This document shows, one piece after another, positions 22,280-30,803 of a DNA stretch of 36,523 bases. The notes beneath the pieces are model-generated. The model saw nothing but the letters and a program-made list of their open reading frames with translations. It did no database searches and was not told the DNA's origin. Positions within the stretch are counted from its first letter, which is position 1. Each line of letters opens with the position of its first letter. The stretch spans positions 1 to 36,523 of the IMG/VR virus record IMGVR_UViG_3300025389_000051; one strand, given 5' to 3'. Both the position numbers and the translations under genes were made by a program. The DNA is from a virus. Lineage: Duplodnaviria > Caudoviricetes.

Positions 22280-22331
22280 TATAGTTATGCCATGAACCAA
22301 ACGGTTCTAGATTCTGGAGGGAATCAAAATG
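22280..22331 (+). promoter_or_regulatory. Early promoter and structured leader, copy 1
   Basis: -10 TATAGT at 22280; GAACC-AAAC-GGTTC hairpin; AGATTCTGGAGGGAATCAAAATG (22309-22331) identical to 27159-27181. Confidence 0.75.
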
Positions 22332-22640: not shown

Positions 22641-22668
22641 AGCCCCTACTCTTCATTGAGTGGGGGCT
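22641..22668. terminator. Bidirectional terminator between convergent genes
   Basis: AGCCCCTACTC-TTCATT-GAGTGGGGGCT with A-rich left and T-rich right flanks. Confidence 0.8.
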
Positions 22669-22701: not shown

Positions 22702-22884
22702 TTAATTATCGCCGTCTAGCAAATCCTCGCCAGTCAAAGCGATCTCAGATGCCTTCATAGTTTCAATAGCCTCGGCAAAGAGTTTTGTAGCGCGATTGCA
22801 GATATCGTCTAAATGGTCAGGAAAATTCTCGCTGGATTGAATCTCCACCTCAAGATCATAGACACGCACGACAACTGAAATCAT
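22702..22884 (-). CDS. 60-aa acidic hypothetical protein, the only supported minus-strand gene
   Basis: No competing + ORF; TATTCT 7 nt before the ATG (leaderless); ends at the bidirectional terminator. Confidence 0.65.
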   Translation of the reverse strand: MISVVVRVYDLEVEIQSSENFPDHLDDICNRATKLFAEAIETMKASEIALTGEDLLDGDN

Positions 22885-22991
22885 GGGGAAAAGAATAGCG
22901 CAAACACACCTTACAAGATTCTTGCTTTTTGTCGGTGGCTACCCCTACCCTGTAACCAATGCCAATCTCGGCAGATTAACTGGAGGTAAAG

Positions 22992-23123
22992 ATGGCTGAA
23001 TGGACTGTAACTCTTGATAGCAAAGAGTGGATGAAACTGCTTGATGACATTAAGTATTCAAATCCAAAATCTCATGCACTACTTGAAAAGAACATCAAAG
23101 TAACGGAGGAACAAAATGGCTGA
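22992..23123 (+). CDS. 43-aa hypothetical protein (not in ORF track)
   Basis: CTGGAGGT SD; MAEWTVTLDSKEWMKLLDDIKYSNPKSHALLEKNIKVTEEQNG. Confidence 0.7.
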   Translation: MAEWTVTLDSKEWMKLLDDIKYSNPKSHALLEKNIKVTEEQNG

Positions 23124-27093: not shown

Positions 27094-27181
27094 TTGAAAT
27101 ACCCCAACCATCCCTTACAGTTGTCTTATTGAAGAACCGAACGGCGGGGATTCAATAAAGATTCTGGAGGGAATCAAAATG
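27094..27181 (+). promoter_or_regulatory. Early promoter and structured leader, copy 2
   Basis: TTGAAA-16-TACAGT; TTATTGAA/TTCAATAA stem enclosing GAACCGAACGGC; 23-nt identity with 22309-22331. Confidence 0.75.
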
Positions 27182-29035: not shown

Positions 29036-29565
29036 TTATTGGGCTTAGCGGTTACGCACAAAGCGGTAAAGATACGGTTGCCAACATTCTTGTTCAGCAT
29101 CACGGCTACAAGCGCGTAGCATTTGCTGACAAGATCAGAGAGTGCCTGTTTGCGCTTGATCCGATTATCTCGGTACGCGCAGAGTTCCCGCTTCATCTTT
29201 CAGAGTATTTTGATGACTTTGGTTGGGAAGCCGCCAAGAAAGTTCCAGAAGTTCGCCGATTGCTTCAAGTGCTTGGTACTGAAGTAGGCCGCAACATTAT
29301 TGATCCTCAGTTGTGGATTGAGATGGCGCTAGGCGATGTTGAGGCTGGCGATAAGATCGTGGTTACAGATGTTCGATTCCCAGATGAGGCTCAAGAGATT
29401 AAGTGGCTCTTTGGTGAGATTTGGAGAGTCGAGCGCCTTAACACCAAGCCCGCCAATCAACACACTTCTGAAACCGCTATGGATGATTGGGTATTTGATC
29501 GCACCGTTGATAACTCAGGTGATATCCAGATGCTTGAAGATTTAATAGATGATTTGATCTTATGA
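29032..29565 (+). CDS. Deoxynucleoside monophosphate kinase
   Basis: GYAQSGKDT P-loop, FAD, RRLLQVLGTE, DVRFPDE and HTSE motifs. Confidence 0.9.
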   Translation: MIIGLSGYAQSGKDTVANILVQHHGYKRVAFADKIRECLFALDPIISVRAEFPLHLSEYFDDFGWEAAKKVPEVRRLLQVLGTEVGRNIIDPQLWIEMALGDVEAGDKIVVTDVRFPDEAQEIKWLFGEIWRVERLNTKPANQHTSETAMDDWVFDRTVDNSGDIQMLEDLIDDLIL

Positions 29566-29711
29566 ACTCTGAATGGAATATAGGCAGATGCAACTCATGC
29601 GGGGAATGGATCGTATTTGACCGCCCTTGCTCGGCTTGCTCTACAATAACCGCACAACCAACGAAAGGGGATGCAGAAATGCACACTTCAATCAATGGAG
29701 GCACACGATGA
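29562..29711 (+). CDS. 49-aa zinc-ribbon peptide (not in ORF track)
   Basis: ATGA overlap; CNSCG...CSAC. Confidence 0.5.
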   Translation: MNSEWNIGRCNSCGEWIVFDRPCSACSTITAQPTKGDAEMHTSINGGTR

Positions 29712-30162
29712 GCGCACTAGGTCAGGCGGCGATTGGTTCGCGCTGAGAGTAAAAGCACGACTCCTTCTAGTAGCGGCAATAGCCGTAGGACTCGCGCTTG
29801 CTAATCCGTCATACGCACTAGCACCAAAACAGATGTTCGTACAACGAACACCAATGGCGGCAAAGCATTATGCCAAACTACAACTAAATAATTACGGGTG
29901 GGCTTCGCAATGGAAATGCTTGCAGACTCTTTGGCAAAACGAGTCTAACTGGCGGCCTGATGCCAAGAATCACACACCCGTTAAAATGTTTATCAATGGC
30001 AAGTGGGTTAAGTTCTACGCTGGCGGTATTCCGCAGAAATTAGGACTCGATCCAAAAGTAACCGTTGAAAAGCAAATCCAAGTTGGGTTGAACTATGTCC
30101 GGGATAGGTACGGTTCACCCTGCAAGGCTCTCCAGTTCTGGCATAGCCACTACTGGTACTGA
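29671..30162 (+). CDS. Secreted lytic transglycosylase (SLT-like); start uncertain
   Basis: Signal-like segment; CL..LW..ESNW, GIPQ and YVRDRYGSPCKA motifs. Confidence 0.85.
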   Translation: MQKCTLQSMEAHDERTRSGGDWFALRVKARLLLVAAIAVGLALANPSYALAPKQMFVQRTPMAAKHYAKLQLNNYGWASQWKCLQTLWQNESNWRPDAKNHTPVKMFINGKWVKFYAGGIPQKLGLDPKVTVEKQIQVGLNYVRDRYGSPCKALQFWHSHYWY

Positions 30163-30237
30163 TGTTCCTAGTGCCGTTCCACTAGGACACAAGGGCGGTT
30201 GAGCAAAGAAACCTCCAGTTCTCTTGCTCCCGCCCTT
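30163..30237 (+). ncRNA. Candidate two-hairpin antisense/anti-SD small RNA
   Basis: TCCTAGTG/CACTAGGA with loop CCGTTC; long bulged stem 30191-30237 with loop ACCTCCAG; both complementary to early leader motifs. Confidence 0.55.
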
Positions 30238-30266
30238 ATCTAATTACAATGGTGTAAGGTATCCCC

Positions 30267-30803
30267 ATGACCACAATAGTTGCCATTCAATACGCAGATC
30301 GCGTGGTCATAGGTGCAGATAGTCAAGTTACGGCAACTCGCAAATTTTCACATCCTCGCATGGTTAAAGTCAGCGAGCGCGGTCAGTATCTAATTGCCGG
30401 GGCTGGATTAAGCGCGGCTTGCGACATAGCCCAACACATTTGGATTCCACCTAAGCCAACAGTTGAGGATCGCAAAGACCTGTATCACTTTATGATCGCC
30501 AAGGTAGTTCCATCTCTCAAGCAATGTTTCAAAGATAATGATTTTAGATTAGAAGGTGACAAAGATGAAGAAACACGATTCTCTTTCCTCATCGCCATTG
30601 GTGGTGAAGTGTTTGATTTGGCTGACGATTTTGCCATTAGCCTTGACGATAGCGGTCATTACGCTATTGGATCGGGTTCTAGCCTCGCTCTTGGCGCGCT
30701 GGCACATGAAGCAACTCTTGAAGAAGCATTGGAAATAGCAGCAAGCAAAGATCCATACACCTCAGCGCCGTTTTATTTCTATGAGCAGGTGAAGCGTGGA
30801 TAA
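30267..30803 (+). CDS. Ntn-hydrolase, proteasome beta/HslV-like peptidase
   Basis: MTTIVA N-terminal Thr, GADSQ, and AIGSGS motifs. Confidence 0.85.
   Translation: MTTIVAIQYADRVVIGADSQVTATRKFSHPRMVKVSERGQYLIAGAGLSAACDIAQHIWIPPKPTVEDRKDLYHFMIAKVVPSLKQCFKDNDFRLEGDKDEETRFSFLIAIGGEVFDLADDFAISLDDSGHYAIGSGSSLALGALAHEATLEEALEIAASKDPYTSAPFYFYEQVKRG

Follow-up and report, generated by a model that had tools for sequence, protein, structure and literature searches.

A conserved two-hairpin element behind a phage transglycosylase gene, with loops complementary to early-gene leaders: a candidate trans-acting antisense RNA

The locus and its genes

The window, by which we mean the whole stretch of DNA analysed here, is a 36.5 kb virus record with an estimated completeness of 93%. 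It encodes portal, tail, lysis, recombination and replication proteins, WhiB, a transglycosylase and an HslV-like peptidase. A PHROG scan of its 58 proteins names no integrase, repressor or antirepressor, and 7% of the genome may be missing from the record. Passages of PMC10202952 describe WhiB as a marker of actinophages. The nearest named relatives by the HslV-like peptidase are the Planktophila phages E7/F5. Because of this relationship and the presence of WhiB, the host is probably an actinobacterium.

The gene for the secreted transglycosylase-like protein (29743–30162, plus strand; PHROG 15428/12661) stops 1 nt ahead of the first hairpin. Its true start is likely CTG at 29743, which would give a protein with a signal-peptide N-terminus; the TGA of a conserved 12-codon ORF (29708–29746, plus strand) overlaps this start, and the longer annotated N-terminus is interrupted by stops in the related loci L017, L029, L036 and L037. 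Upstream of the transglycosylase, positions 29562–29746 hold a 49-aa zinc-ribbon ORF together with the 12-codon ORF. The predicted operon promoter (29617–29647, plus strand) consists of TTGACC (29617–29622), a spacer of 19 nt and TACAAT (29642–29647). The call relies on conservation of the −10 box, which 22 of 26 loci have at this position, including loci with a different gene in place of the overlapping one. On the other side, a predicted −10 box TAAGGT and the leaderless start (30267) of the HslV-like peptidase gene (PHROG 1040) occupy 30255–30269 on the plus strand and would set the 3′ limit of the element; the box is the same in most relatives.

The neighbourhood varies among relatives. 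L003, L004, L009 and L014 carry an extra promoter-like box and a folded insert between element and peptidase gene, about 15–75 nt past the element. In some relatives an abiF RNA (RF03085, above gathering score; L041:3028-3063) is inserted just 3′ of the element. In one lineage a GroEL-like gene, named by eye, lies directly upstream of the element (L420:8344-9882).

Fold of the element

The initial annotation placed two hairpins directly after the transglycosylase stop, and folding bears this out. The element (30164–30237) folds at −36 kcal/mol with a z-score of −6.5, and none of 200 shuffled sequences is as low; the minus strand folds equally well in the window (z −7.3). Hairpin 1 (30164–30188, plus strand), defined by fold and covariation, presents a 6-nt loop CCGUUC (30174–30179) that is closed by a G-C pair and is complementary to the leader motif GAACGGC. 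Hairpin 2 (30191–30237, plus strand) is built of an outer stem, a UU bulge (30199–30200), a GAGC/GCUC helix (30201–30204 with 30226–30229) and the apical loop 2, ACCUCCAG (30211–30218). No Rfam family matches at E ≤ 1 across the whole window, in line with the earlier remark that the element was not recognised as a described family, and the C4 family (RF01695) gives no match at gathering score in 8 related loci.

Conservation and covariation among relatives

Relatives were gathered through neighbouring proteins, without using the loops. The transglycosylase found 30 loci, and the element is present in all 29 that have downstream DNA. Further loci came from a distant transglycosylase (27) and from the peptidase (the best 80 of 363 viral and the best 80 of 502 metagenome matches). 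A structure-only descriptor matched 155 of 202 redundant peptidase loci; one match was spurious, and several misses were regained by the model. There is one copy of the element per genome.

The alignment comprises 39 distinct variants. In the plain alignment, 19 of 24 base pairs change on both sides, and the covariation of 0.485 compares with 0.173 for shuffled alignments (0/500) and 0.08–0.17 for slid ones. A model-fitted alignment, which leans to the model, gives both-side changes at 20 of 24 pairs, with 91% paired. In hairpin 1 all 9 pairs change on both sides while loop 1 stays fixed, and CCGTT is kept in 37 of the 39 variants. The first U of the hairpin 2 bulge is invariant (39/39), the second position is U in 37 and A in 2, and the G-C and A-U pairs above the bulge are fixed in 38 of 38. 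Loop 2 reads CCTCCA in 29 variants, CCTCCG in one and CTCCA in one, and it is lost in the other 8. The two-loop design of the initial annotation stands for the near-invariant loop 1, while loop 2 is optional. The element is real, conserved and uncatalogued in Rfam. We found no published description of it, including in the parts consulted of PMC2864571, PMC5712189 and PMC4626039; a 10,006-motif catalogue of the same virus collection (PMC10690425) or PMC5737381 may list the motif without a function.

The element is absent from the cultured Planktophila phages E7/F5, where the top model match lies inside a coding region (E 1.1), and the prokaryote genomes searched yield one HslV-like locus, which is without it. 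Weak model matches in two relatives that have no element, L426 and L380, are positioned inside tail genes and were rejected. Fragments of such relatives contain no divergent antisense hairpin. Pattern scans of viral contigs constrained by the loops gave mostly chance matches and were set aside.

Several relatives elaborate or reduce the structure. Between the stop and hairpin 1, many have a third hairpin, whose internal loop is conserved (L016:10496-10545, L017:4170-4222, L305:505-562, L331:9869-9922 and L318:5200-5256); the window is without it. The L429–L432 lineage has hairpin 1 alone, with a plain hairpin replacing hairpin 2. In L460 (7307–7333), L461 and L459, the gene preceding the peptidase ends in a low-complexity stretch that contains a bulged GAGCA/UGCUC hairpin whose loop is UCCCC. 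The ribosome site of the peptidase gene is GGGGAC, and the hairpin match is weak (E 1.1).

Early leaders as predicted targets

Three early leaders on the plus strand are the predicted targets. Leader 1 (22280–22331) has a −10 box TATAGT (22280–22285), a probable +1 at 22292, a 5′ hairpin with AACGG (22300) and CTGGAGG (22314) in the loop of a second hairpin, ahead of the start at 22329. Leader 2 (22946–22994) opens the recombination/replication operon with a −10 box TACCCT and an ATGCC/GGCA hairpin, followed by AACTGGAGGT (22978–22987), a 10-nt match to loop 2, and the start at 22992. Leader 3 (27094–27181) has a TTGAAA/TACAGT promoter, a probable +1 at 27128, a 5′ hairpin with GAACGGC (27139), CTGGAGG (27164) and the start at 27179. 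A terminator (22641–22668) lies downstream of gene 22329, and a small opposite-strand ORF (22702–22884, minus strand) is located between leaders 1 and 2.

The complementarities listed in the initial annotation are correct as strings and as coordinates. GCCGTTC (30173–30179) is the reverse complement of GAACGGC (27139–27145), and AACGGT is found at 22300–22305. The loop-2 string ACCTCCAGTT (30211–30220) is complementary to CTGGAGG at the ribosome sites of 22329 and 27179 and makes the 10-nt AACTGGAGGT match ahead of 22992. The matches are short, as was also said, and individually weak: AACGG occurs 44 times and GAACGGC 5 times on the plus strand of the window. CTGGAGG has four occurrences in the window (22314, 22980, 27164 and 32244), and AACTGGAGGT has a single one on the plus strand (22978). 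Loop 2 is what we take to be a generic anti-Shine-Dalgarno sequence, and this counts against the antisense reading.

One proposed contact does not hold. The CGGC named as the loop-1 target at 22992 is part of the stem in relatives, where the conserved hairpin is ATGCC/GGCA with a variable loop, so the 4-nt match is unsupported. Both motifs are accordingly found in the leaders of 22329 and 27179, and the claim that all three leaders carry both fails at the loop-1 site of 22992, which is not conserved. In several lineages the 22992-type leader has GGAACGG immediately before the start instead.

By an accessibility-corrected pairing score the three leaders rank 1–3 of 59 gene starts, in unequal windows (the three were cut at the probable +1, the others at −45). 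A loop-1 match of at least 5 nt and a loop-2 match of at least 7 nt coincide at only 2 of 60 starts, 22329 and 27179. Loop-2 matches of at least 6 nt occur at 7 of 28 non-virion starts vs 0 of 30 virion/packaging starts, classes that were set by position. The predicted pairings are short (5–7 bp and 6–10 bp), and nested cofolding gives no energy gain and no duplex, which counts against pairing. Since cofolding gains no energy, the stability of pairing would rest on a kissing geometry that the model cannot score.

To gather leaders from many loci we required a promoter shape, a non-coding position and a 5′ hairpin, and left motifs out of account. They form a set of 47 distinct leaders from loci bearing the element and a comparison set of 15 (relatives without the element, as fragments; E7/F5; and other actinophage-like records). 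The top six of all 1024 5-mers in the 47 leaders are GAACG, AACGG, CTGGA, ACGGC, TGGAG and GGAGG, and together they span GAACGGC and CTGGAGG, which are complementary to loop 1 and loop 2. Of 29 leader clusters, 15 contain AACGG, with a mean of 1.9 in shuffles and a maximum of 12 for any 5-mer over 2000 shuffles. In 25 of 47 leaders AACG[GA] stands unpaired within the 5′ hairpin, vs 0 of 15 in the comparison set. AACGG still occurs in 3 of 15 leaders of relatives in which no element was found, which are available as fragments only, and more copies are seen by eye beside the ribosome site; this counts against the antisense reading.

The loops could instead be aimed at the host. A host-directed RNA would have loops that resemble the 16S tail and an anti-start sequence and would damp host translation generally, its match to phage leaders being secondary. 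Loop 1 pairs with AAUGGC through one G-U pair, the order of the loops suits colinear pairing with a ribosome site plus AUG GC, and the best loop-1 sites at 22329 and 22992 are start-codon-like. ATGGC starts 17 of 50 leader genes vs 60 of 294 others (p 0.043). However, the exact complement evolved in hairpin loops of the phage's own leaders, and loop 2 is dispensable. We consider a host-directed role very improbable.

Loops and leaders change together

If the pairing were fortuitous, loops might vary freely while leaders stayed fixed. We looked for this and did not find it: the stems covary, loop 1 is near-invariant and loop 2 tracks the ribosome site, and together these support the proposal of a trans-acting RNA that pairs with early leaders. 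For the loop-2 tally we pooled leaders carrying either AACG/GACGG or the ATGCC/GGCA hairpin, together with the L278 leader, and dropped rows of another hairpin type, one tail-gene row, one without the hairpin motif and one with a mis-called start. Within the final 18 nt, TGGAG is present in 25 of 33 leader ends from loop-2 lineages vs 0 of 12 from lineages without loop 2; AACGG lies there in 4 of 33 vs 5 of 12. These counts are not independent: in the tree of the neighbouring gene, a single well-supported clade holds every loop-2 loss (4 changes). A previous automated tally of narrower scope gave 17 of 30 vs 0 of 4 and does not reach significance (p 0.10). At coupled internal starts there is little difference, with TGGAG at 22 of 233 with loop 2 vs 5 of 84 without it. 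A lineage's own loop 2 pairs better with its leaders than loops from other lineages do (7.8 vs 6.7 bp; permutation p 0.0007, 10 variants). Matched variants include CCUCCG with ACGGAGG in L353/L420 and ACUCCAUU with AATGGAG in L296.

Loop 1 has two informative variants. With CCUAUC (L278), the one visible leader has no AACG and carries AGATAG, a 6-nt match. UCGUUC (L017/L387) goes with GAACGA leaders in 2 of 2 cases; GAACGA leaders, with one mismatch, are also found in CCGUUC lineages, which counts against the coupling. No further leaders of the loop-1 variant L397 are found along the neighbouring sequence. In the clade without loop 2 (L331, L340, L341, L344, L401 and L431), another gene begins with a leader hairpin of a different kind (GAAGGCTC...GAGCC).

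These co-changes also bear on the idea that the element serves its own message in cis, either as a processing, stabilising or terminating 3′-UTR structure or as a tail that folds onto ribosome sites near the operon's beginning. It is placed 1 nt past the stop, the same module stands ahead of tRNA-Asn in L029 and WC1, and the short upstream ORF of the operon has a TGGAGG or ACGGAGG site. That upstream site, however, keeps ACGGAGG despite the loss of loop 2 (L284, L395) and keeps AACGG despite a changed loop 1 (L278). The RNA is retained behind the GroEL-like gene in L420, the U tract is inconsistent, several variants have separate terminators downstream, and the AACGG loops of distant leaders are left unexplained. 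A role in cis is therefore unlikely, in our judgement.

Strand and transcript end

The element is most likely transcribed from the plus strand. G-U pairs favour this strand (25 G-U vs 9 A-C), and separate terminators or a tRNA follow the element on it; in 24 of 39 variants, however, it is the minus strand that folds more stably. A reading of the element itself as an intrinsic terminator was rejected, since the terminator scan did not call it, it has no consistent U tract and its tails are variable. Separate terminators lie 3′ of the element in L038, L041, L296 and L318. A tRNA-Asn is found directly 3′ of the module in L029 (L029:8556-8628) and WC1 (L589:1503-1576) and nearby in L584; at these loci tRNA processing could define the 3′ end of the RNA. 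Loop 1 is complementary to the D-loop of the L029 tRNA-Asn, which we set aside as coincidence, for it is seen in 1 tRNA among 18 sources, of which two represent a single genome.

The strand matters for another explanation, in which proteins would bind the leader motifs and a minus-strand transcript of the element would be a decoy that shows both motifs in its loops. The minus strand does fold as well or better and would display GAACGG and CUGGAGG in loops. The G-U pairs, the plus-strand terminators and the downstream tRNA all argue against a decoy, as does a consensus scan that found no minus-strand promoter adjoining the element. We give this explanation a very small chance.

Proposed mechanism

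On balance, we think it reasonably probable that the element is a 3′-UTR-derived trans-acting antisense RNA that damps early translation by loop–loop pairing. The RNA would be expressed and processed from the 3′ untranslated tail of the transglycosylase operon, is likely to accumulate as a stable small RNA, and would act in trans on the early leaders. Loop 1 (GCCGUUC) would make a kissing contact with AACGG in the loop of the first hairpin of each early transcript, and the TGGAGG ribosome site 10–25 nt downstream would be masked by loop 2 (CCUCCA), so that initiation would be blocked. In lineages without loop 2, loop 1 alone may suffice to cover the initiation region, because their leaders are without TGGAG and several have a second AACGG beside the start codon. 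With a predicted separate promoter and build-up of the RNA over time, the result would be a delayed off-switch for the early operons, with possible silencing of the early genes of a superinfecting relative. We infer from this a role as an early-to-late switch or immunity factor, as the initial annotation had suggested.

Real pairing could also have another outcome. The early transcripts might decay or terminate prematurely, as with P4 CI, or the RNA might serve superinfection exclusion only and have no timing role. Loop-1 targets are in the very first hairpin of the transcript, 20–40 nt from the start codon, where either decay or termination could be triggered, but the loop-2 sites and the second AACGG sites fall on the ribosome site itself. 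Such outcomes seem to us quite unlikely.

Early-gene shut-off in repressor-less phages is mostly unknown. If the antisense reading is true, a compact solution emerges, in which several unlinked operons answer to a single small RNA and their leaders have evolved to fit it. The element family offers a natural case of RNA–target covariation.

A wider hairpin-2 module in other phages

The invariant U bulge with its GAGC/GCUC helix is a predicted protein-docking or processing site that may be common to other phage RNAs. A hairpin-2 scan without a loop condition yielded 120 stretches of about 140, with 85 distinct matches. The outer stem has at least 6 pairs in 26 of the 85 (about 1.7 expected), and 21 of these 26 are outside the element family of the window phage. 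C-rich loops occur in 20 of 35 long-stem vs 5 of 37 short-stem matches. Compared with Rfam, the module has no fit in WC1 or in 20 loci of this kind. One form of the module matches 312 named records, 271 from Mycobacterium and 41 from Rhodococcus phages, in which it is unannotated. A module of the same form thus recurs in phages unrelated to the window phage, whether or not by common descent.

In WC1 the module (1443–1494) is located between gene 3 and tRNA-Asn. The arm that holds it is reported as late, and the three non-coding regions named in the passages concerned are located elsewhere (PMC10986025). Matches of at least 6 nt to the WC1 module loop are found at 15 of 38 early (right-arm) vs 0 of 22 late (left-arm) ribosome sites, a result equalled by 0 of 1000 shuffled loops, with a 6-nt cut-off that was chosen after viewing the data and a rank test at p 0.052. 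Swapped loops give no enrichment. In mycobacteriophage Bethlehem the loop match (7 of 50; 224 of 1000 shuffles) is not significant, and L477–L524 have almost no matching leaders within the stretches examined.

Other arrangements of the module are also seen. L477, L481, L490, L500, L520 and L524 carry a three-hairpin cluster that ends in the module and has two C-rich loops; a terminator precedes it, and the ORFs on its other side are HNH- and terminase-like, as named by eye. Another WhiB-bearing group (L197:9990-10078, minus strand; L198; L213; L228:7720-7811; L251) has hairpin 2 with a CACCUCCAU loop, which sits between early and replication genes; no exact target was found for it in G029.

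A broader and more tentative idea is that many unrelated phages share one scaffold, a TAR-like U bulge with a GAGCGC/GCGCUC helix, whose loops are refitted in each lineage to its own early-gene ribosome sites. The scaffold would then be a widespread, retargetable early-gene off-switch, read by a host or phage protein. Hundreds of records of cultured cluster A1 mycobacteriophages and Rhodococcus phages would carry it where the late arm begins. We regard this as possible but rather doubtful. The shared module ties the uncultured group to cultured phages, namely WC1 (Rhodococcus erythropolis) and cluster A1 (Mycobacterium smegmatis), and because it occurs in these the idea is testable by deletion and compensatory mutation.

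Comparison with known systems

In HIV-1 TAR the first U of the bulge is essential, and above it a G-C and an A-U pair are fixed. The TAR bulge forms a U.A-U triple that binds arginine, as described in part of PMC7864049. The element likewise has an invariant first bulge U with a G-C and then an A-U pair above it, but it belongs to a bacterial virus and is a structural look-alike only; no homology is claimed.

Double loop–loop repression is described in passages of PMC8383071 for RNAIII–rot of Staphylococcus aureus and for OxyS–fhlA, with contacts in the 5′ UTR and the ribosome site and a C-rich loop. As in RNAIII–rot, two loops are complementary to two unpaired target sites, one of them at the ribosome site, in the leaders of 22329 and 27179; this is not the case at 22992, nor in the 8 of 39 variants without loop 2. 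RNAIII and OxyS are host regulators with no sequence or structural homology to the element, whereas the element is about 75 nt long, phage-encoded, and a single RNA for a convergent set of leaders.

The CI RNA of satellite phage P4 is processed from a longer transcript and pairs with two short sites, according to part of PMC4825925. Processing from a longer transcript, here predicted, and two short pairing sites are shared by the element. In contrast, the targets of CI flank it in its own transcript and cause termination, while the predicted targets of the element are 3–8 kb off in other transcripts, and the sites in its own operon do not covary.

C4 of P1/P7 (RF01695) is a phage RNA whose loop sequences are complementary to phage mRNA near the ribosome site and which blocks translation (passages of PMC12197685 and PMC8201110). 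The loops of the element are, in silico, likewise complementary to the ribosome-site region of phage mRNA. The element differs from C4 in having no Rfam match and, in the window, two hairpins. C4 acts on one antirepressor mRNA, whereas the predicted targets here are several unlinked early operons, and no immunity operon with icd/antirepressor targets is named among the 58 proteins of the 93% complete window (PHROG). Although it falls outside both C4 and CI as families, the element would by analogy work like C4, P4 CI and RNAIII–rot.
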